Positions 21,013 to 31,016 of a stretch of 64,000 nucleotides of DNA are shown in pieces. Origin of the DNA: Alphaproteobacteria bacterium (GTDB lineage Bacteria > Pseudomonadota > Alphaproteobacteria > UBA2966); contig OZ219858.1 in assembly GCA_964291395.2 (NCBI GenBank), positions 1,024,001 through 1,088,000 of the forward strand, given 5' to 3'. The notes beneath the pieces are model-generated. The model had not been told where the DNA came from. It ran no database searches and was given only the letters and a program-made list of their open reading frames with translations. The position numbers and the translations under genes are program-made. Positions within the stretch are counted from its first letter, which is position 1. The number at the start of each line of letters is the position of its first letter.

Positions 21013-21116
21013 GTAGCGGCCGCGACGCGTCCGGTCCGGTCGGTTGAATTCCGTCGATGTTGTCGACATCATCGAGGAGAACGGCGTATCCGCCGTATCG
21101 CTCAAGGAACTCCGGG

Positions 21117-22682
21117 ATGGTGTCGCCAAGCAGGAGCAATTCGACGAGCCGACCCAGCCGGGCGGCGAAAATCCGTGCAGGCCTTGACCATCCGGTGGTC
21201 GACGCGGATGGGCACATGCTGGAATATGCCCCGGTCTTTCTCGACTTCCTCAAGCAGGTGGCGGGAGCGGATACGGTCAAGCGTTACGCGGCGAACTCCA
21301 AGAGGTCGCGGGCCAATCTCTGGCACACGATGTCGAGGCGCCAAGTTCGGGATTACCGGATCGGGCGGCCGCCGTTTTGGGCCGTCGCCGCCGCCCACAC
21401 GCTCGATCGGGCGACGTCCATGCTGCCCGGCTTGCTGCGCGACAGGCTCGACGAACTCGGATTCGACTACACCATCGTGTATCCGACGTTCGGATTCTTC
21501 TTGATCGATGAACCGGACGAAGAACTGCGCCGGGCGTGTTGCCGGGCTCACAACACCATGACCGCCGATATGTTCGGCCCGCACGCCGATCGCATGACTC
21601 CGGCGGCCTGCATCCCAACGGGCACGCCGGTGGAGGCCGTCGAGGAACTCGAGCATGCCGTAAAGACACTCGATCTCAAGGTTGCGATGGTGGCCAGCCT
21701 GTTTCATCGGCCGATCAAGGCGGCTCCTCACGTCGAAGACGACCCGCGTCTGCAGGCGTACTGGATCGACAACCTCGCCGTCGACAGCGAGTACGATTAC
21801 GACCCTTTCTGGGCGAAATGCGTTGAACTCGGCATTGCGCCGACCGCTCATTCTCACCTCCAGGGACACGGACACCGCCGTTCGGTGAACAACTATCTTT
21901 ACAATCAGATCGGCCACTTCGCGGATGCCGGTGAAGCGTCCGCCAAGGCGGTGTTCCTTGGCGGTGTGACCCGGCGATTCCCCGAGCTCAATTTCGCATT
22001 TCTCGAAGGCGGAGCGGTCTGGGCGTGCGGCCTGTATGCCACGCTGGTCAGCGCATGGAGAAAACGGGGGGCGCACGCCATCGGCCAGTTCGATCCTTCC
22101 AGGATCGACTTCGACGAACTCGGCGAGTATTTCGACAAGTACGGCGGGGAGTCGTTCTCGCGTGCGCTCGGTGGGCGGGTCACCAACGAAACCAAGCGGC
22201 TCGGGTATGTCAACGTGTCCTCCGACGGCACGACCAGCAAGGCCGATCTGGACCGTCTGGATGATTTTGCGGCCTGTCAGATCGAAAAGGCCGAGGACAT
22301 CATCGATCTTTTCGTCGAGCCGTTCTACTTCGGCTGCGAGGCGGACGATCCCATGGCCGCGGTCGCCTTCCGCGGCAAGGGACTCCCGTTCGATGTCAAG
22401 CTGAAAGCCGTGTTCGGTTCGGACATCGGCCACTGGGACGTGCCCGAAATGCGGGAGGTGCTGGAAGAAGCCTTCGAACTGGTAGAGGACGGGCTCATGG
22501 AAGAGGACGATTTCCGAGATTTCATGTTCACCAATCCCGTCACGCTGCACGCACGGGGCAATCCCAGCTTCTTCAAGGGTACCATCGTCGAGGACGCGGT
22601 GGACAAGCTATTGATCGAGGAGGCCGGCAAAACCGGGAAGAGACGGTCCAAGGGAAAGAAAGCGATCGCGCAGTCCGCGTGA
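21117..22682 (+). CDS. Amidohydrolase_2 family metal-dependent hydrolase/decarboxylase; start uncertain
   Basis: VDADGH, YDPFW, RRFPEL.FAFLEGG, FGSDIGHWD. Confidence 0.88.
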   Translation: MVSPSRSNSTSRPSRAAKIRAGLDHPVVDADGHMLEYAPVFLDFLKQVAGADTVKRYAANSKRSRANLWHTMSRRQVRDYRIGRPPFWAVAAAHTLDRATSMLPGLLRDRLDELGFDYTIVYPTFGFFLIDEPDEELRRACCRAHNTMTADMFGPHADRMTPAACIPTGTPVEAVEELEHAVKTLDLKVAMVASLFHRPIKAAPHVEDDPRLQAYWIDNLAVDSEYDYDPFWAKCVELGIAPTAHSHLQGHGHRRSVNNYLYNQIGHFADAGEASAKAVFLGGVTRRFPELNFAFLEGGAVWACGLYATLVSAWRKRGAHAIGQFDPSRIDFDELGEYFDKYGGESFSRALGGRVTNETKRLGYVNVSSDGTTSKADLDRLDDFAACQIEKAEDIIDLFVEPFYFGCEADDPMAAVAFRGKGLPFDVKLKAVFGSDIGHWDVPEMREVLEEAFELVEDGLMEEDDFRDFMFTNPVTLHARGNPSFFKGTIVEDAVDKLLIEEAGKTGKRRSKGKKAIAQSA

Positions 22683-22733
22683 CGGCATTCCCGGTGACGT
22701 CGCTTCACAAGCAACAAACCAGGGAGGAGAGAC

Positions 22734-23366
22734 ATGGCCGCCAATCTGAACGTCAGCATGGAAGCCTGGAACGACGGCGAGCCCATCCCGGAAGAGTACG
22801 CATTTTGCGTGCCTGCCGACGAAGGCCACGTCACCATGGGCGCCAACCTGAGCCCGGCGATGCGCTGGTCGGGCGCACCCGACGATACCAAGTCGTACGC
22901 CATCATCTGCAACGATCCTGACGTTCCCTCCGTCGCCGACGACGTCAATCAGGAGGGCAAGATCATCCCGGCCGACTTGCCTCGGGTCGATTTCTGCCAT
23001 TGGGTGCTTGTCGACGTGCCCGCCGACGTCACGTCGCTGGACAAAGGTGCGGAGTCCGGGGGCGTCGCGCCCGGGGGTAAACCCCACGGGCCAACGGACC
23101 ATGGCGTTCGCGGAATCAACCGCTACACGGAATGGTTCGAGGGCGACGAGCAGATGGCGGGTAGCTACGGGGGGTACGACGGTCCCTGCCCGCCCTGGAA
23201 CGACACCATCCTGCACCACTACGTCTTCACGGTGTATGCCCTTGATGTCGAAAGCCTCGGCTTGAGTGGGACCTTTAGCTGCAAGGAGGCACTCGAGGCG
23301 ATGGAAGGGCATGTCCTGGCGGAAGGGTCCTGTACCGGGACTTACACCCTCAATCCCGATTTGTGA
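22734..23366 (+). CDS. YbhB/YbcL PEBP family protein
   Basis: NLSP...W, DPDVP, HWVL, YDGPCPP, HHYVF. Confidence 0.93.
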   Translation: MAANLNVSMEAWNDGEPIPEEYAFCVPADEGHVTMGANLSPAMRWSGAPDDTKSYAIICNDPDVPSVADDVNQEGKIIPADLPRVDFCHWVLVDVPADVTSLDKGAESGGVAPGGKPHGPTDHGVRGINRYTEWFEGDEQMAGSYGGYDGPCPPWNDTILHHYVFTVYALDVESLGLSGTFSCKEALEAMEGHVLAEGSCTGTYTLNPDL

Positions 23367-23445
23367 TAGCCGTCGAACGGATTGCGTCCGTTAACTGCCA
23401 TGAAGGCCGCGACGTGGTTCGCCGCTGACCGCTGGAATAGTCGTC

Positions 23446-24300
23446 TCAGGCGGCGATGATCGCGGCTCCGGTCACTTGGGTCCGGTGCATCGTGCGGCGT
23501 GAGTCCGCGGGAAACGCGTTTCGACGGTGCATGACACAGCGATTGTCCCAAATGATCAGGTCACCCGTCCGCCACTCATGGGTCCACACGTACTTCCGTT
23601 GGGTGGCATGTGCCCAAAGCGCATCGAGGAGCTTCTCGCTTTCCTCCGCGTCCATGCCAACGATGTATTGCTTGGGGCGGCGCCCCAAATAGAGAACCGG
23701 CCGGTCAGTGTCGGGATGACGGCGCATCAGCGGATGGCGCGCGTGCGGTGACTCTGTTCGCACCCCCGCCACCTCCACCGAACGTTGCGGGGCGCCGGCG
23801 CTGTCATAGGTGCCATCCTGGTGCGCCGATTTGCCTGCGATCGCCGACCGCAAATGCTCGGGCAGCTCCGACGTCGCCGAGTACATATTGCAGAATTCGG
23901 TCTCGCCGCCCTCTGACGACACTTCCAGGGCATGGAGAATGCTGGCCTTGGGTGGCACGGGGTGGTTGGACATGTCCGTATGCCAGCGCAGCTCTCCGTC
24001 GCCCAGGCTACCCATCGGCTCGCCGTCGACGATGACGTTGGAAACGATGATGAGTTCCGGATGTTCCGCCGAGTACTGCTTTCCCGTCGCATTGGGGGGA
24101 CAAAGATCCAAGTCGCCGAAGTAACGGCTGAAACTGATCAGTTCCGGGTCGGAGATGAACTGGTTGCGGAAAAGCAAGACCAGGTGTTCGGACCAGGCGT
24201 CCATGATTGTCCCGGCGTCCGCCGGGTCGAGCGCTTGAGAGAGATCCGCGCCGCGAATCTCGGCTCCCAGTGCCTTGCCGGTGGGAATCACTTCGATCAT
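23446..24300 (-). CDS. TauD/TfdA Fe(II)/2-oxoglutarate dioxygenase
   Basis: LGAEI, WHTD, GGETEF, WDNRCVMHR, R.MHR. Confidence 0.94.
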   Translation of the reverse strand: MIEVIPTGKALGAEIRGADLSQALDPADAGTIMDAWSEHLVLLFRNQFISDPELISFSRYFGDLDLCPPNATGKQYSAEHPELIIVSNVIVDGEPMGSLGDGELRWHTDMSNHPVPPKASILHALEVSSEGGETEFCNMYSATSELPEHLRSAIAGKSAHQDGTYDSAGAPQRSVEVAGVRTESPHARHPLMRRHPDTDRPVLYLGRRPKQYIVGMDAEESEKLLDALWAHATQRKYVWTHEWRTGDLIIWDNRCVMHRRNAFPADSRRTMHRTQVTGAAIIAA

Positions 24301-24415
24301 GACCTTGTCCTTTGACGACTACGATGGTCGGTGCGCAACGCCGGCTGCCGAGCATACGATTTTTCCAGATCTGACGGCCCGGTTAAAGGGGCCAAAGACG
24401 AAACGAGTTGTGCGC

Positions 24416-25948
24416 TCACTGGCCTACGCTTCGCGCAACGCGGAACCCGAAATTGTAATTGCGGTACTCCAGGATGTACCGGGCTCGCTTGGCGGATCGG
24501 ACATTCTTCGGATGGCTCCCCCAGGCACCGCCTCGCATCACGCGGCGCCCGCAGTTTCCGCTCAACCAGGGCGAACCGTCCCGGGGCGCGCCCCGATAGC
24601 TGTCGTTCCAGCAGTCTTCGACCCATTCCCAGACGTTTCCATGAACGTCGTGCAAACCGAATTCATTTGGTGCAAAGCTGCCGACGGGAAGCGTTCGCTT
24701 GCGGTACACGCCTCTCTCGCCTTCCCCATATGACGACGTCCCGTTGTAGTTCGCTTGGTCCGACGTGATTGTCTGGCCCACGTGGAATGGTGACCGCGTG
24801 CCCGCCCGGGCCGCGTATTCCCATTCCGCTTCGCTCGGCAGCCGATAGATCTGGCCGGTCTTCTCGCTAAGCCAAGCGGCGTACGCCTTCGCCGTGTTCC
24901 AGCTGATGCAGACGACGGGATCGTTCTCGCCCTGCGGATACCCGGGATCGCGCCAGCTCTTCGACGTGTCCAAGCGGCCGCCCGAGCCGACCCGCACGAA
25001 GCAGGAGCCTCCCCCTGCGTGTCCCGTTTCTTCGACGAAGGATGTGAATTCTCCTCGCGTCACCTCGAATCTGCCCATGGCGAACGAGGCCACCATGACT
25101 TCGTGCTTCGGTCCCTCCACGTCGTCCCGAAACGGCTCGTCCGGCGGCGAACCCATGACGAATGCGCCGCCCGGCACCACCACCATCTCCGGGCACACGT
25201 CGCAGTCTCTGAATGTCGTGCCGGGTGGCAGATCCGGCAACAGCAGCAGGAAGGTCCCGAGAGCGGCGAATACCAGGAGCGATATGCCCATCGCCACCAG
25301 CCGCCACCTCGGGAGACGGACAGGTCCCGTCGCCAGGGGGACAAGATCCCCCGTGCCTTGAAGCGCGCCGGTGGCCGGGGCGGTCACGGGTTCGAGCCCC
25401 ACGTGACGCAGGACTTCGTCGGCGTTGCGCACGCCCAGGATCCCTTCAACGCCGGCTATGCCGTGATCGGCGACGTCCTCCAGATTCGCTGCGGGAACGA
25501 CCAGCGTGACGGGAGATTTCTCCGCGACGCGGCCGGAAAAATGCTCGCGCGTCGCGTGAAGCTTCTCTCTCATGAAATCCGCTTTTCCCACCCGCAGATC
25601 AACGTCGACGGTTCCGGTGATCCACAGGGTTGCGCCTGCGTCCTCACCGGGTCCCGCAAGGCGACCCGCCCTATCCAACGCGTGCGCGACCAATACGGGC
25701 AGCTGCCAGGAATTGCCGTCGCCGATTTCGCCCGAGGCGTCCAACCGGAAGCCACCGGGCTCGAACGGGCCCAGGACCCGCTCGATCACACCCGAGGGTT
25801 GGCGAACGAAATCATCGTAATCGGAGCTGATGGGCAGAACCGATGTCGTCCGGCCCAGGCAAACCTGCGAAATGGGCGCCGCCTCGCGCGTGATCCGCTC
25901 GATCTGAACGGGCTCTTTCGTGGTTGCGGCGAAGACGTGAACCTTCAT
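24416..25948 (-). CDS. Lon-like Ser/Lys protease domain + single TM + FGE-sulfatase (C-type-lectin fold) domain
   Basis: N-term DGNS80W, ITGTVDVDLRV...REK129, VPAANLED; TM ~217-237; C-term FRDCDVCPEMV, RLPSEAEWEYAAR, FGLHDVHGNVWEW, RGGAW, GFRVAR. Confidence 0.8.
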   Translation of the reverse strand: MKVHVFAATTKEPVQIERITREAAPISQVCLGRTTSVLPISSDYDDFVRQPSGVIERVLGPFEPGGFRLDASGEIGDGNSWQLPVLVAHALDRAGRLAGPGEDAGATLWITGTVDVDLRVGKADFMREKLHATREHFSGRVAEKSPVTLVVPAANLEDVADHGIAGVEGILGVRNADEVLRHVGLEPVTAPATGALQGTGDLVPLATGPVRLPRWRLVAMGISLLVFAALGTFLLLLPDLPPGTTFRDCDVCPEMVVVPGGAFVMGSPPDEPFRDDVEGPKHEVMVASFAMGRFEVTRGEFTSFVEETGHAGGGSCFVRVGSGGRLDTSKSWRDPGYPQGENDPVVCISWNTAKAYAAWLSEKTGQIYRLPSEAEWEYAARAGTRSPFHVGQTITSDQANYNGTSSYGEGERGVYRKRTLPVGSFAPNEFGLHDVHGNVWEWVEDCWNDSYRGAPRDGSPWLSGNCGRRVMRGGAWGSHPKNVRSAKRARYILEYRNYNFGFRVARSVGQ

Positions 25949-26496
25949 CCGTCGATGAATATCTCGCTTCCGGGATCACGAAGCGCCGCCAGCACTTCCG
26001 AATCGTTTTCGACGAGAATTTGGATCAATCCGGCGTGGGGTTCCGGCAGCGCAACCCGTCGGCACGTATTGTCGCCGACGAACACCGCCAGCCATCTCGG
26101 ATGACGGCCCGGATCATCCAAGGAGATGATGATGTACGTCTGCGCCGGCTCGGCGCGTGATTCTTCAAAACGAATGCGGCAGCCGGGGGCCACGCGTTGC
26201 GCGACGCCTCCCGCGGCTGCGGCGGCGAGTTCGGGGATATGATAGCAGGCAATCTTTTCGGTGAGGCGCCGCAATTCGGCGCGAAGTGCGGAACTTTCCC
26301 GAAGTGCGGTCTCGAGGTTCGGGTCTCTTGGGCGCGCCTCGGTAACGTAAACGTAGAGACGCCGCAGCGTGACGTGCTCACCGAACTCCATTCCATCGAT
26401 CGAGACGCCCAGCGCCGCTTCCGTCGCAAGCACGTCGAATGTCCGCTCGGCAACCGCAAGAGTGTCATCGTCGGGTAGCTCAAACCGTTCGCTCAT
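25945..26496 (-). CDS. Hypothetical protein, anti-sigma-like with LAAAAA linker
   Basis: ATGA overlaps on both sides; helical N-half, PELAAAAAG, beta-rich C-half. The ORF is well supported; the function is inferred. Confidence 0.75.
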   Translation of the reverse strand: MSERFELPDDDTLAVAERTFDVLATEAALGVSIDGMEFGEHVTLRRLYVYVTEARPRDPNLETALRESSALRAELRRLTEKIACYHIPELAAAAAGGVAQRVAPGCRIRFEESRAEPAQTYIIISLDDPGRHPRWLAVFVGDNTCRRVALPEPHAGLIQILVENDSEVLAALRDPGSEIFIDG

Positions 26497-28010
26497 CGTT
26501 CGACCCCATAGATACGAGCAAACTGTTTGCTGAACACGTCATGATCGTATGCGAACTGATCGTCGAGATCAGTCCCTTCCTCCACCGATTGTTTCAATAC
26601 CCGCAGAAATGCATGGATTTGATCGCTAATCGCCGCCAGTGCTCCGGCACCGACTTCGTACACGACACCCGATCCGCGTTCACCCACGACCGCGTCCTCG
26701 AAGCCCCTGCGCGAGATTCCCGCAAAGGCCCGTTTCGCTACATCCCGCGCCTCCTCGAGCCGCTCGTCTTCGGACGCTCGTTCCGCAGCGTCATCCGCCT
26801 GGAGAGCCACGTGGAGCGCTGCCCGCAATGCGTTGTTCACGCGCTCGTCCAGCACGACGAGCCGGTCATGCCATTCCCGGTACGTCTCGGCGCCGGCGCA
26901 GGCGATGAGCTCGCTCAAGGTGTCGCCAGTATCCCGCCGCCTTGCAGCTTGTGAAAGCCGGGCCTGTACATCCCCGAAGACTTCGGCACGCAACAGAGAC
27001 CAGGGCAGCCGATGCACGCGCGGTCCGTGCTCCATCAGACGATCCAGAGCCGTCAGGTCCACCTTGTTCAGGAACCGAACGTTCTCGAAGGGCGGCTCTT
27101 GCAACGTCGAAAGCGGGGAGGTCCACAAGGCGGCTGCTTCCGCGTCATCCAGAAGTAGAGCAACGTCGACCTCACCCGCATCCCGATCGGAGCCGATTGA
27201 ACGGGCGCGTTCGACGGCCTCGCGGTCCGTCGCGATCTCGAGGGCCGAGAGGAAAGCCATGTAGGCGTCGAACACGCTCCGAAACAGACGGAAGTTTCCG
27301 GTTTCGCCGTTCAGAGATTTCTCCCGCCAGAACGCCAGGACGGTGGCGTCCTCGACGACCAGCGTTTTCGACTCCGACCTCGCGTAATCGAGCAGCTCCT
27401 GAAACTTGCCCTGCATCTGAACGCTTGGAAGGTGTTCCTTCAGGTACGCATACAGGCGCCGTTCGATTCCATTCGCTGCGCTCCGGACGCCGCGGTCCGT
27501 CATGGGTGGTTCCAGCATGGTGTGGAACTCATCGTCGACAGCGGCGTAACCGATGGTGCCGCAGAGAAATTCGAACAAGGCGGCGAGAACCGGCATTCCG
27601 GCAAATCCCACGTTGAAGACACCGTCGTCGTAGCGCACGGCAACGCCGTCTGCCGTCAGTTCGCATCCGGGACGCCGCCAACCCCGATTAGTCACGGCGT
27701 TCTGGATCCAGCCTCGGAATCCGGAACCGGTAGCACGTTCCGGTCCCAGCAACAAATGCTCGTAGGCGCCGCGGCGGGGCGCGCACGAGTCGGCCACGTT
27801 GATCAGGTGGCAAAGCTGCAGGACGGGTACCGCATAGGCGCGGCAGACGACGAGCCGGTTGAGACGACGGCACACCTTGGTGGGATAGTGGGCCGCACCG
27901 TCCGGGGTGGTGGAGTCCGCCACCGCTTGGAGGGCGGCTCGCAGCTCGCCACTCTGTCCCGCCTCCAGGACGAGGCTTGCCGCGCGTTCTATTTCGAGCG
28001 ACATGTTCAC
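26493..28010 (-). CDS. Hypothetical 505-aa mostly helical protein, first gene of the operon
   Basis: GGAGG RBS before GTG/ATG; long ORF; stop overlaps next ATG; no motif recognised. Confidence 0.8.
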   Translation of the reverse strand: MNMSLEIERAASLVLEAGQSGELRAALQAVADSTTPDGAAHYPTKVCRRLNRLVVCRAYAVPVLQLCHLINVADSCAPRRGAYEHLLLGPERATGSGFRGWIQNAVTNRGWRRPGCELTADGVAVRYDDGVFNVGFAGMPVLAALFEFLCGTIGYAAVDDEFHTMLEPPMTDRGVRSAANGIERRLYAYLKEHLPSVQMQGKFQELLDYARSESKTLVVEDATVLAFWREKSLNGETGNFRLFRSVFDAYMAFLSALEIATDREAVERARSIGSDRDAGEVDVALLLDDAEAAALWTSPLSTLQEPPFENVRFLNKVDLTALDRLMEHGPRVHRLPWSLLRAEVFGDVQARLSQAARRRDTGDTLSELIACAGAETYREWHDRLVVLDERVNNALRAALHVALQADDAAERASEDERLEEARDVAKRAFAGISRRGFEDAVVGERGSGVVYEVGAGALAAISDQIHAFLRVLKQSVEEGTDLDDQFAYDHDVFSKQFARIYGVER

Positions 28011-28245
28011 GCCTCCTGCATGGTCAGATCACGTTCAACGCCGGTGGAATTCCTCCTGCCTGCTTTAGTCGGAGGCCGGCCTTCTTGGCAACAGCGGCAT
28101 CGAACTCACGGCCATGGGCCTGGGCGACGCCCCGCTCGGTGACATCCTGGCGCGCGTGGCGCGACTGCCGTGGGTGGGCTAATTTTCGCCATCGGGTGAC
28201 GGATCCGTACCCAATTCAAGCCCGAAAACATCGGAGGGAGCATCT

Positions 28246-28494
28246 ATGTCGTTCTACAAACCGGACCTTGGCGCAAATCCGGACGATCCCTTTGCCCGCG
28301 ATGCCGATGGAAAGCTGGTCAGGCGAGCGTTTTGGCTCGATATGAGCGACCGCTCTCTGGTGCTCGCCATGACCCGGGGAGTTGGCGCCCCTTTGACCGC
28401 GTCGGAAAAACGCGCTCATCTCGAGGACGTCGACCGTTCCCACTTGATCGATGAGGTCTGTACACAGGAAATCCTGCCACCCGAGGGGGAATGA
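28246..28494 (+). CDS. Small hypothetical protein (82 aa), divergent from the operon
   Basis: GGAGGGAG RBS; protein-like sequence. Confidence 0.7.
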   Translation: MSFYKPDLGANPDDPFARDADGKLVRRAFWLDMSDRSLVLAMTRGVGAPLTASEKRAHLEDVDRSHLIDEVCTQEILPPEGE

Positions 28495-28638
28495 CCCCCG
28501 ATCGTGCACGGCAGAGCTGGGCCTGCGGTCGTTGCCGACTGCCGAGGGTTTGTGGACAATGGTGTCGGTGCGGGCTAGAAGGGTGTCGCTGTTTCGGGGT
28601 GTCCGGGATGGTTGAGAGGATTTTGGAGGGGTGGAGCG

Positions 28639-28977
28639 ATGGATGTTGCGACGGAACGGCAGGACGACGTCTTGTCGGTCCTGGTGAGCGGTCGCATTGA
28701 CGGTTCCAATGCTGCGGCGTTCGAGGAGTCGGTTAGAGCGGCGATTTCGGACAGCGACCGAGCGGTGATCATGGACCTTGAGAAGCTTTCTTATATCAGC
28801 AGCGCGGGTCTTCGTGTTTTGCTGATGATTGCCAAGAATCTTTCGGGTCGGGACGCCAAGCTGGCGCTTTGCGCCATGTCGGATCAGATTCGGGAGGTTA
28901 TCGAGATAAGCGGTTTCGACAAGATCATCCCGGTTCACCCGTCCAAGGCCGAGGCGCTTGCGTCCCTGGACGGCTGA
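28639..28977 (+). CDS. STAS-domain anti-anti-sigma factor (RsbV/SpoIIAA-like)
   Basis: GRID, D...LSYISSAGLR with the phospho-acceptor Ser. Confidence 0.93.
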   Translation: MDVATERQDDVLSVLVSGRIDGSNAAAFEESVRAAISDSDRAVIMDLEKLSYISSAGLRVLLMIAKNLSGRDAKLALCAMSDQIREVIEISGFDKIIPVHPSKAEALASLDG

Positions 28978-29045
28978 TCTGGTGGGGTGGGCGTTTTCTG
29001 CGCCTTGTTTGTGGTTCTGGGTGCCGCGACGCGGGGGTCTGAGGG

Positions 29046-29468
29046 ATGGTCGCTGAGGTGTCCTTGCGCATGGGGGCGGCCCGGGAGGAGCTTCCGCGCG
29101 TACACGCGGCGCTTGAGGCGTTTGCGCGGGATGAGGGCTGGCCTTCTCGGCTTGAGTTTCAGATCAAGCTGGTCATCGAGGAGGTGGTCATGAACATCCT
29201 GAGTCATGGGTACGAGGATGGCGGCGATCACGACATCCTGATCGAGCTTGCCTCGGATGCGGAGAAGATCGGCATCGAGATTGTCGACGACGGTCGCCCG
29301 TACGATCCTCTGACGGAGGCGCCGGCACCGGATACCGAGGCGTCTCTCGCGGACCGTCCCGTGGGCGGGCTAGGCGTGTATCTCGTATGCGCGTTGATGG
29401 ACGAGGCCAGCTATCGGCGGGAGGACAACCTCAACCGCCTCGCCCTTACCAAACAAAAACCCGCGTAA
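29046..29468 (+). CDS. RsbW-like anti-sigma factor / Ser kinase (HATPase_c_2)
   Basis: EEVVMNILSHG, DDGRPYDP, GGLGVYLV. Confidence 0.93.
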   Translation: MVAEVSLRMGAAREELPRVHAALEAFARDEGWPSRLEFQIKLVIEEVVMNILSHGYEDGGDHDILIELASDAEKIGIEIVDDGRPYDPLTEAPAPDTEASLADRPVGGLGVYLVCALMDEASYRREDNLNRLALTKQKPA

Positions 29469-29630
29469 CCAGACGTTCAGGCCGGTTGCATCCGACAACA
29501 AACAGAAACGCAGACGGCGCATGCCGCAGCGAAGGTATGCTTAAATCCTCCGGTTAATGAATGTTTAGATGGAAACGGAGAGCGAACCGGCGTATACGCA
29601 TATCCCTCTTGCCGCATGAGGAGCAGTGTC

Positions 29631-31016
29631 ATGCCCGGGAAATGGACGCCGGATAGCTGGCGCGGCCTGCCGATTCGGCAGCAGCCGGATTATCCGGATG
29701 CTGCCGCGCTGGAGGAGGCCCTGGATCGGATACGACGGCAGCCGCCGCTCGTCTTCGCGGGCGAGGCGCGCCGGTTGCGTTCGGCGCTGGCGGGTGTGGC
29801 GGAGGGACGGGCCTTTCTGCTGCAGGGCGGCGACTGCGCCGAGAGCTTCGCCGAATTCAGCGCGGACAACATCCGCGACACGTTCCGGGTTTTGATGCAG
29901 ATGGCGGTCGTCATGACGTTCGCGGCGGCCTGCCCCATCATCAAGGTCGGGCGCTTGGCGGGTCAGTTCGCCAAGCCGCGCAGCGCGCCGACGGAGGTCC
30001 AGGACGACGTGGAGCTTCCGAGCTATCGCGGCGATATCGTGAACGGCATGGAGTTTACGGCCGAGGCTCGGGCGGCCAACCCTTCCAGGCTTCTTCAGGG
30101 CTACCACCAATCTTCCGCGACCTTGAATCTGTTGCGGGCGGTCGCGCACGGCGGCTATGCCGACCTTCGCCGCGTTCACGGCTGGAATCTGGATTTCGTT
30201 TCCCGCACCGCTCAGGGCGAGAGATACGCCGGCCTCGCCGACCGTATCACTGAGGCCCTGAGCTTCATGGAGGCATGTGGCATCACCGGTGAGTCCGTGC
30301 CGGCCGTAAGAGAGGTGGACTTCTATACCTCGCATGAGGCCTTGCTGCTCGGTTTCGAGGAGGCCATGACCCGCGTCGATTCGACGACGGGCGACTGGTA
30401 CGACACCTCGGCTCACATGCTGTGGATCGGCGACCGTACCCGTCAGGAAGATGGTGCCCACGTCGAGTTCATGCGCGGGGTCTCCAATCCCATCGGCATA
30501 AAGGCGGGTCCCACGATCGCCCCCGACGAACTGTTGCGGTTGATCGATATCCTCGACCCGGCCGTAGAGCCTGGCCGCCTCACGGTCATCGTGCGCATGG
30601 GCGCCGACAAGGTTGGTGAGCGTCTGCCACCGCTCGTTCGCGCGGTTCGGCGGGAGGGCCGCAAGGTCGTGTGGTCTTGCGATCCGATGCACGGCAATAC
30701 GGTGAAGTCGGCGAACGGTTACAAGACCAGGATGTTCGATCGGATTCTGTCGGAGGTCCGGCAATTCTTCGACGTCCACATTGCGGAGGGAACTTACGCC
30801 GGCGGTGTGCATTTCGAGATGACGGGCCAGGACGTTACGGAATGCCTCGGCGGCGCGCAGGACATCACCGAGCGCTCGCTCGCGGATCGTTACCACACCC
30901 ATTGCGACCCGCGCCTCAACGCATCTCAGGCACTGGAGCTGGCGTTTCTGATCGCCGACTCCCTGAAGGAACAGCGCGCCAACGGTCAGCCCCCGATCGC
31001 CGCCGAGGCGTCCTGA
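29631..31016 (+). CDS. Class II DAHP synthase
   Basis: [42 protein letters not shown]. Confidence 0.97.

Follow-up and report, generated by a model that had tools for sequence, protein, structure and literature searches.

Three overlapping genes and their products

We analysed a 64,000-nt window of DNA (contig OZ219858.1, positions 1,024,001-1,088,000 of the forward strand, assembly GCA_964291395.2; coordinates below count within this window) and concentrated on three consecutive minus-strand open reading frames (ORFs), found by ORF calling at 26493-28010, 25945-26496 and 24416-25948, which we call G1, G2 and G3. Both junctions are ATGA stop/start overlaps, at 26493-26496 between G1 and G2 (...GAACG-ATGA-GCG...) and at 25945-25948 between G2 and G3 (...GACGG-ATGA-AGG...). 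The GGAGG ribosome-binding site of G1 (28012-28016, minus strand) lies 7 nt from an ATG at 28004 and 1 nt from a GTG at 28010; because a spacing of 7 nt is the one expected of a ribosome-binding site and close homologues have 503 aa, G1 most likely starts at the ATG and would span 26493-28004, encoding 503 aa. A preliminary description of this DNA had given 505 aa; it had placed the three minus-strand genes, the two overlaps and the GGAGG correctly. The GC content of the triad (0.61-0.65) is the same as that of its flanks, and a simple promoter and terminator scan gave no signal exceeding shuffled sequences. Since all three genes are kept as a unit across dozens of genomes, they are, by comparative sequence, far beyond chance ORFs.

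G3 (24416-25948) encodes a 510-aa single-pass membrane protein with a Lon-type protease domain, a transmembrane (TM) helix and an FGE-like domain, as the preliminary description had proposed. In an AlphaFold2 model of residues 1-200 (pLDDT 89.7, pTM 0.88), residues 1-187 (25388-25948) are by predicted fold a full Lon proteolytic (S16-type) domain without the ATPase module, for which protease activity is predicted. Foldseek ranks Lon proteolytic domains at the top (E 3e-6, probability 1.00; 144 matches at E<=0.001), and VIA-align superposes 158-163 residues within model residues 1-187 on Lon with a Z of 15.4 and a root-mean-square deviation of 3.1-3.2 Å, at an identity of just 14-19% in the structural alignments. 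When the G3 family profile was run against PDB sequences, 22 of the 24 chains listed were Lon or Lon-like (best E 0.0044), with K129 falling on the lysine of 'VTQKIEAA' in A. fulgidus Lon in the hmmsearch alignment; hhalign of the G3 family against the Lon of its own genome (probability 75%, E 2.5e-5) lays REK-L on KEK-L and again puts K129 at the catalytic-lysine position. On these alignments K129 would occupy the position of the Lon catalytic lysine, at the start of the helix that follows a 'GG-x-K-E-K' turn, and the Lon kinship of the modelled domain is visible by profile and fold only.

The pair guessed as catalytic in the preliminary description, Ser80 (codon 25709-25711, minus strand) and Lys129 (codon 25562-25564, minus strand), proved to be strongly conserved. 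R68, G78, S80 (in G-x-SWQL), H89 and G112 are invariant across alignments of 24, 45 and 59 G3 relatives, and K129 is invariant in the 24 and the 59 sequences and at least 90% conserved in the 45. S80 stands in the segment GDGNSWQL, which precedes helix 82-93 in the model.

The rest of G3 is built as a TM helix and a candidate sensor. The Kyte-Doolittle 19-residue maximum (2.44) falls at residues 218-236, within the one hydrophobic helix at about 218-240 (25229-25297; VAMGISLLVFAALGTFLLLLPDL), and R-x-x-R-W-R precedes it. Because of these Arg residues we infer, by the positive-inside rule, that the N-terminal protease domain is cytoplasmic and the C-terminal domain periplasmic. Residues 252-506 (24431-25195) match Pfam PF03781, FGE-sulfatase, with E 1.9e-64, and PMC7159879 assigns such FGS domains a C-type-lectin fold. 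PvdO, the best NCBIfam model for G3, scores 257.6 bits, where its cut-off asks for 500; none of the NCBIfam equivalogs of the FGE fold is reached, and GldK, EgtB, SenA and OvoA stay far under their cut-offs. FGE enzymes carry a catalytic Cys pair after an RGG-[SA]-W motif. Because the corresponding C-terminal segment of G3, RGGAWGSHPKNVRSAKR, has no Cys (its Cys residues are at 30, 249, 252, 316, 347, 446 and 466), the domain is probably a non-enzymatic binding module, and we propose that it serves as a ligand-binding sensor. Two more FGE-sulfatase genes lie elsewhere in the genome, at C1:1312996-1313862 and C1:2563349-2564155 (44% and 31% identical to the C-terminal domain of G3), both unlinked to any Lon-type domain.

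It is the C-terminal part that varies in the family. A search with G3 residues 1-235 found 44 proteins that have the same N-terminal domain and different C-terminal parts. Among 59 full-length relatives the C-terminal domain is DUF4384 in 8, DUF4189 in 6, FGE-sulfatase in 3 (G3 itself included) and WD40 in 2, and in the remainder it matches no named family.

G2 (25945-26496) encodes a 183-aa putative adaptor and substrate with two domains, at about residues 1-87 and 97-183, on either side of the motif PELAAAAAG (residues 88-96; 26209-26235, checked in translation). It has no Pfam, NCBIfam or PADLOC family match, its profile finds no PDB sequence below E 1, and Pfam over 68 relatives gives no family in more than 2 members; ESM Atlas returns unnamed clusters only, the nearest named family, zf-HC2, covering 15% of members with a score of 0.79, which is chance level. 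The preliminary description had seen in G2 an exposed poly-Ala linker. Exposure agrees with the complex prediction below, in which the tract lies outside the interface with G1; a mere linker it does not seem to be, for in an alignment of 70 G2 sequences the tract is, by its sequence, a conserved motif and the most conserved element of the protein, not low-complexity filler. The family consensus is P-x-[ALV]-A-A-A-[SA]-[ST]-G, with A92 and A93 each invariant (70/70), P88 in 56/70, A91 in 44/70 and G96 in 47/70; position 90 is A in 37, L in 14 and V in 14, position 94 is S in 48 and A in 18, and position 95 is S in 41, T in 15 and A in 8. In the C-terminal half R101, S113 and L150 are invariant, and Q119, Y121, P151, G156, Q159, D174 and E178 are highly conserved.

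G1 encodes an acidic (isoelectric point 5.15; median 5.26 over 68 relatives), mostly helical, cytoplasmic protein without a known family, and is the proposed output or effector. Its AlphaFold2 model (pLDDT 90.6, pTM 0.81) has one small sheet at 114-133. There is no Pfam, NCBIfam, PADLOC or PHROG match, ESM Atlas gave no useful match, the profile finds no PDB sequence below E 1, and Pfam over 69 relatives gives no family in more than 2 members. Searches with the model, which effectively covered residues ~293-501 (the C-terminal bundle) and on which we base no claim of a new fold, gave 0 Foldseek matches in the PDB at E<=0.001 and, in a wide VIA search, a best Z of 5.5 to generic helix bundles. 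The protein had been called an orphan. It is indeed unannotated, and far from being without relatives: when a G1 profile was run on 1.84 billion representatives, 976 representative clusters passed E<=0.001, and 602 of these passed E<=1e-30. The 150 relatives listed have 375-699 aa, most being matched as one full-length stretch, and their lengths show no large added domain.

Complex prediction pairs G1 with G2, as the preliminary description had expected. Three runs gave ipSAE values of 0.72, 0.72 and 0.74, whereas the best of 3 controls scored 0.00. Such a mark is attained by 58/80 solved complexes and 2/110 mismatched pairs, counts that hold only roughly, because purpose-built G1 and G2 alignments were used. 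Contacts agree between runs to at least 87%, and partner pLDDT is at least 81. The predicted interface puts G2 residues 2-84 on G1 residues 18-332 and leaves the alanine motif and the G2 C-domain outside, except for residue 182. The prediction supports binding of G1 by the G2 N-domain with the motif left free, the geometry expected if G2 tethers G1 while presenting the motif to a protease. G1 also has a conserved hydrophobic helix at 129-147 (Kyte-Doolittle 1.74), which lies partly in the predicted G2 interface (144-157).

Conservation and genomic context of the triad

A pattern scan over 185,579 species, with one genome per species, matched 168 stretches, of which 114 encode a G3 N-domain relative; our set of loci consists of the best 80 of these, mostly from alphaproteobacterial metagenome-assembled genomes, with Terasakiella isolates and some Gammaproteobacteria. 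A first pass with hidden Markov models found G1 in 68/80 loci and G2 in 69/80, and one iteration brought these to 69/80 and 71/80. Nearly all loci with partners keep the order G1-G2-G3, contiguous and on the same strand, and a G2 relative lies directly upstream of the G3 relative in nearly all its loci. G1 is on the opposite strand or displaced in L054, L063, L072, L077, L079 and L080 (described as divergent in L054, L063, L077, L079 and L080), with G2 still directly upstream of G3, and in L053 G1 and G2 are both separate from G3; L037 has no upstream sequence, and L012 and L024 end before G1. The co-occurrence of three genes around a protease whose C-terminus varies, which the preliminary description had named as support for its reading, is thus borne out.

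Within the same taxonomic family G2 is present in 11/12 other genomes, against 0/10 in the sister family and 0/38 single genomes from other families of the class. Close relatives L001-L004 keep the local synteny, seen in a divergent 82-aa ORF upstream of G1 and, in L001, in TauD. Retention in the family together with this synteny looks like vertical inheritance.

The most recurrent neighbours point to the cell envelope. An SLT lytic transglycosylase gene immediately precedes G1, in the same orientation, in 47 of the 63 loci whose G1 is full-length; the triads of this genome and of L001-L004 have no such neighbour. Of 7 further families, 3 or more adjoin the triad in the same orientation in 25/80 loci, and 5 or more do so in 21. 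In those 25 loci (L006-L033, L042, L048, L060, L062, L074) the triad sits within a co-directional cluster of ~13 genes, for example at L031:3207-12427, in the order c8, c7, SLT, then G1, G2, G3, then c6, c5, c10, c11, c9, c4, c12, and SLT is the only one of its genes that Pfam or NCBIfam names. Scans of a single representative per accessory family (nine families, those seven plus c7 and c8) gave no Pfam match and no credible NCBIfam match, two NCBIfam rows (E 0.0067 and 0.037) being far under cut-offs. As read from the sequences, most example accessory proteins start with a segment that is hydrophobic or resembles a signal peptide, a lipoprotein or a TM helix, and the cluster may be an undescribed envelope apparatus. 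The SLT adjacency and this larger cluster make the cell envelope the biological context that we consider for the triad.

This genome has one triad and, anywhere, none of the accessory families. Because the triad occurs here with neither an SLT neighbour nor those families, we take it, on gene content, to be a self-sufficient core that works without the accessory machinery. In L044, L055, L058, L069 and L073 (gammaproteobacterial and some others) several ORFs that cluster with G3 surround the triad, eight of them in L044; in such loci protease heads of different types, each with a similar surface domain, may be neighbours. These loci belong to the 32 whose 89 flanking ORFs were scanned (see below), the Peptidase_C14 and FGE-sulfatase matches being counted over all those ORFs together.

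Comparison with known systems

The closest parallel is CalpL-CalpT-CalpS, in which, as in the triad, three adjacent genes include a stand-alone Lon domain, lacking an ATPase, that is fused to a sensor. According to the report on that system (10.1101/2024.05.08.593097), CCaCalpL cuts CalpT in an alanine-rich LAAA, between A204 and A205; the new ...LAA end is a C-degron that directs the N-fragment to cellular proteases, in line with the ends recognised by ClpXP (LAA of ssrA, VAA of RseA); and the N-fragment alone holds CalpS, with the cut site distant from that interface. CalpT resembles G2: both are two-domain middle proteins with an Ala-rich site, LAA|A in CalpT and [ALV]-A-A-A in G2, as the preliminary description had suggested for the tract now found to be an invariant motif. 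Binding of the output protein by the N-fragment, and a cut site away from that contact, are published for CalpT and predicted by the model for G2, and a C-terminus resembling an Ala-Ala degron is left by the cut in CalpT and, by prediction, in G2. By analogy with the CalpT site we predict cleavage of G2 between the invariant residues A92|A93; the motif resembles the site cut by CalpL, and the cleavage itself is a prediction.

In other respects the two systems differ. The sensor of CalpL is a cytoplasmic SAVED domain that binds cA4, whereas G3 has a TM helix and a periplasmic FGE-like domain, and Pfam finds no SAVED match in G3 or its relatives. CalpS is an ECF-like sigma factor, whereas G1 is a 503-aa protein without a convincing fold match and of no sigma family. 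CalpLTS is associated with type III CRISPR; the triad, in the order output-adaptor-protease, has no cas genes nearby: the ORFs that were called and scanned from 21057 to 31016 include none, and the 25 commonest neighbour families listed for 32 other loci contain no Cas family. For G2, no PDB chain shows detectable sequence similarity. Because a SAVED domain, a sigma factor, a CRISPR link and partner sequence similarity are all lacking, the triad is not a member of the CalpLTS family. In a second VIA look at the G3 domain canonical Lon and RadA fill the 50 entries listed and CalpL chains are not among these, a result compatible with a structural likeness to CalpL.

The triad also recalls DegS/RseP-RseA-sigmaE with ClpXP and RsgI-type systems, in which an envelope signal likewise leads through adaptor proteolysis to the cytoplasmic release of a sequestered protein. 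In the triad, by contrast, the receptor itself would be the protease, of the Lon-type Ser-Lys kind, and the adaptor would be soluble; there is no PDZ/S1P protease, site-2 metalloprotease or sigma factor. The cut in RseA exposes a VAA end, as described in 10.1101/2024.05.08.593097, and the Ala-Ala degron proposed for G2 resembles it. LonA, LonB and LonC share the proteolytic-domain fold with G3 and, by an alignment that is of low confidence for the Ser, the Ser-Lys pair, and LonB is membrane-anchored; G3 differs from canonical Lon in lacking the AAA+ module and in a proteolytic domain that begins at residue 1. Bacterial orthocaspases and Ser/Thr kinases with a TM helix and FGE-sulfatase, DUF4384 or WD40 domains place the same swappable C-terminal set behind a cytoplasmic enzymatic head, to judge from published accounts, whereas the head of G3 is a Lon-type protease with two dedicated, co-inherited partners. 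Full-text literature searches, with subscription-only papers and supplementary files outside their scope, turned up no account of a membrane protease that combines a Lon domain with these partners, and the term 'Lon' has 0 occurrences within PMC7159879.

A proposed proteolytic switch and its alternatives

Taken together, the triad has in our view about an even chance of being a chromosomal three-gene transmembrane proteolytic switch that follows the logic of CalpL-CalpT-CalpS with different parts. Computation supports this reading through the folds, the conserved dyad and invariant motif, the linked genes, the variable sensor and the complex predicted for G1 and the G2 N-domain. From it we infer that G2 is cut and at which bond, that a degron step follows, and that a signal activates G3 and G1 has an output. 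G3 would be an inner-membrane receptor-protease, its cytoplasmic Ser80-Lys129 Lon-type domain joined by the TM helix to a periplasmic binding domain. The G2 N-domain would clamp G1, and the G2 C-domain would probably dock on the protease. G3 would be activated from the periplasm, by a cue that probably has to do with the envelope or cell wall, and would then cut G2 within P-x-[ALV]-A-A|A-[SA]-[ST]-G; the N-fragment, ending in [ALV]-A-A (a ClpXP-type degron), would be degraded, and G1 would be set free to act. The genome has a clpX gene.

A bolder version would make the triad a new class of one-component receptor-protease, in which a periplasmic lectin-like domain senses a cell-wall or envelope cue (the family being usually linked to an SLT gene) and directly switches on the cytoplasmic Lon-type protease, the adaptor is destroyed, and a latent effector with a new fold, G1, is released, perhaps to act on the membrane and not on transcription. 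Action on the membrane is suggested because the conserved hydrophobic helix of G1 would be masked by the adaptor until release. As a whole we consider this version rather unlikely.

If the switch exists as proposed, its interest lies in the rebuilding of a known logic. Signal-gated, ATP-independent Lon-domain proteases are so far known from the CRISPR-linked CalpL system, and the triad would recast the gated Lon domain, the adaptor with its Ala site and the released partner as a transmembrane sensor, with two partner families (G1 and G2) that have neither family nor fold assignment. It is no rarity, given the 976 representative clusters of G1 and the presence of G2 in 11/12 other genomes of its own family. 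Cultured Terasakiella strains, with T. pusilla DSM 6293 and T. brassicae among them (loci L025 and L032), carry the triad, which makes genetics feasible; A92|A93 is a concrete prediction of a substrate site; and an uncharacterised envelope gene set becomes linked to a candidate regulator.

Several results count against the switch. RadA has a Lon-like domain of the same fold (VIA Z 14.4 to G3) and is no protease. The equivalence of Ser80 with the Lon serine rests on its invariance and on a global hhalign alignment of GDGNS with PKDGPS, the only alignment in which the two meet, of low confidence (probability 4.8%). A Pfam scan of G3 at E<=1 matched FGE-sulfatase alone and did not reach the Lon_C model. 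The family and fold searches gave G1 no regulator, DNA-binding, sigma-factor or enzyme signature that would suit an output protein, and the calibration of the complex score is, as said, rough. Finally, the Lon-type domain also occurs without G1 and G2: eight loci with upstream room (L034, L040, L059, L067, L068, L070, L075, L078) have neither, so that G2 is missing nearby in 8 of the 79 assessable G3-like loci and G1 in the same 8 of 77. Several of these carry long G3 forms (674-1332 aa), and inspection of the eight recognised no alternative partner. As a separate observation, the long proteins of L067, L068, L070, L075 and L078 begin with the Lon-type domain, and some genomes have several paralogues.

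The interpretation offered in the preliminary description is therefore partly supported overall, its computational tests having come out in favour. Cleavage and activation by ligand-induced clustering, both part of that description, stay proposals. For the idea of G1 as a regulator no support emerged: G1 is acidic, has no DNA-binding signature and no convincing fold match, and no sigma-70 region family is found in it or among the 17 families matched at E<=0.1 by 69 relatives.

The same proteolysis could instead serve defence or conflict, with G1 a latent toxic effector, possibly membrane-active, that is held by G2 and released once the surface domain of G3 detects attack by phage or damage to the envelope, in the manner of abortive infection. 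The sensor set of FGE, DUF4384 and WD40 domains is also found on bacterial caspases and conflict-system effectors, according to PMC7159879 and other published accounts, and caspase-type proteins often adjoin the triad: among 89 ORFs that flank 32 stand-alone loci, Pfam finds 8 FGE-sulfatase, 7 SLT, 7 Peptidase_C14, 2 DUF4384 and 2 PG_binding_1 matches, and PADLOC finds 4 matches to its 'caspase' model with single members of other defence models scattered among the rest. The hydrophobic G1 helix that lies partly within the predicted G2 interface would suit a masked membrane-active effector, and a second VIA look at G1, which gave no Z>=5, shows among its noise-level rows ClyA-type pore formers next to other long bundles, with Z 3.0-4.4 for G1 294-503; this likeness, however, is under the tool's stated noise level. 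No PADLOC (PADLOC-DB 2.0, E<=1) or PHROG model matches G1, G2 or G3, the 72,556 plasmid and 50,697 phage records searched contain no G1 relative, the triad shows no GC anomaly and looks vertically inherited, and its most recurrent neighbours are envelope genes (SLT, lipoproteins). Because of the SLT and envelope-cluster linkage and the vertical conservation within the family, the data favour a role in envelope-related signalling over mobile defence, and we regard a defence function as unlikely.

G3 might also be a maturation protease that cuts G2 to free an active C-terminal domain, leaving G1 as a chaperone or anchor of the G2 pro-domain. It would fit that the most conserved G2 columns outside the motif, R101, S113 and L150 among them, lie in the C-half, and that G2 stays directly upstream of G3 in the six loci where G1 is displaced or on the opposite strand. 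Docking of the C-domain on the highly conserved protease domain would, however, explain its conservation equally well; G1, at 503 aa, with 976 representative clusters and nearly always present, is more than a chaperone would need to be; and the [ALV]-A-A end of the N-fragment suits a degradation signal. We think maturation quite improbable. Very improbable, finally, is that no proteolytic signalling takes place and that the Lon fold is a non-catalytic scaffold, as in RadA, the triad then being structural parts of an envelope-spanning assembly with SLT and lipoproteins: the near-equal fold scores of RadA and Lon (Z 14.4 vs 15.4), the SLT gene upstream of G1 in 47/63 loci and the 25/80 loci with at least 3 of 7 envelope-type families would suit it, but without catalysis it is hard to explain why Ser and Lys are invariant at the positions of the dyad and Ala-Ala is invariant in G2, and the triad of this genome stands alone, with neither an adjoining SLT gene nor the accessory families.

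Flanking genes, expression and habitat

The genes on either side of the triad are unrelated to it, as had been described: downstream, a family scan of the flanking ORFs gives TauD, PEBP and an amidohydrolase, and upstream lie the divergent 82-aa ORF, a STAS/HATPase_c_2 pair and a DAHP synthase. The pair, at 28612-29468 on the plus strand, consists of a STAS anti-sigma-antagonist-like gene followed by a HATPase_c_2 (SpoIIAB-like) kinase gene and so forms a partner-switching pair adjoining the triad; no conserved link between the two was seen in other genomes.

DNA near-identical to 23300-28700 occurs in 20 listed runs (X1-X20) from 14 studies, most of them labelled sponge metagenome, and because of this recurrence the organism appears to be sponge-associated. 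The reported completeness of its genome is 98.1%, and the reported contamination 9.0%. Contigs from an RNA-library run, X18, match the triad with 0-1 differences at 25372-25632, 25794-25993 (bridging the G2/G3 overlap), 27040-27263, 27283-27472 and 27564-28030, and 26015-26919 (the greater part of G2 and the 3' portion of G1) is covered by none of the listed pieces; runs X19 and X20 contain mostly look-alikes of 90-95% identity. Such contigs show neither strand, level nor a single transcript, and DNA may be present in such libraries, so that they give a weak hint that the triad is expressed.

The divergent 82-aa ORF (28246-28494, plus strand) has a strong GGAGGGAG ribosome-binding site and no Pfam family. 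It is absent from the remaining loci and kept in L001-L004 at 85-90% identity, in the same place upstream of G1, and an RNA-library contig spans 28282-28487 over it.

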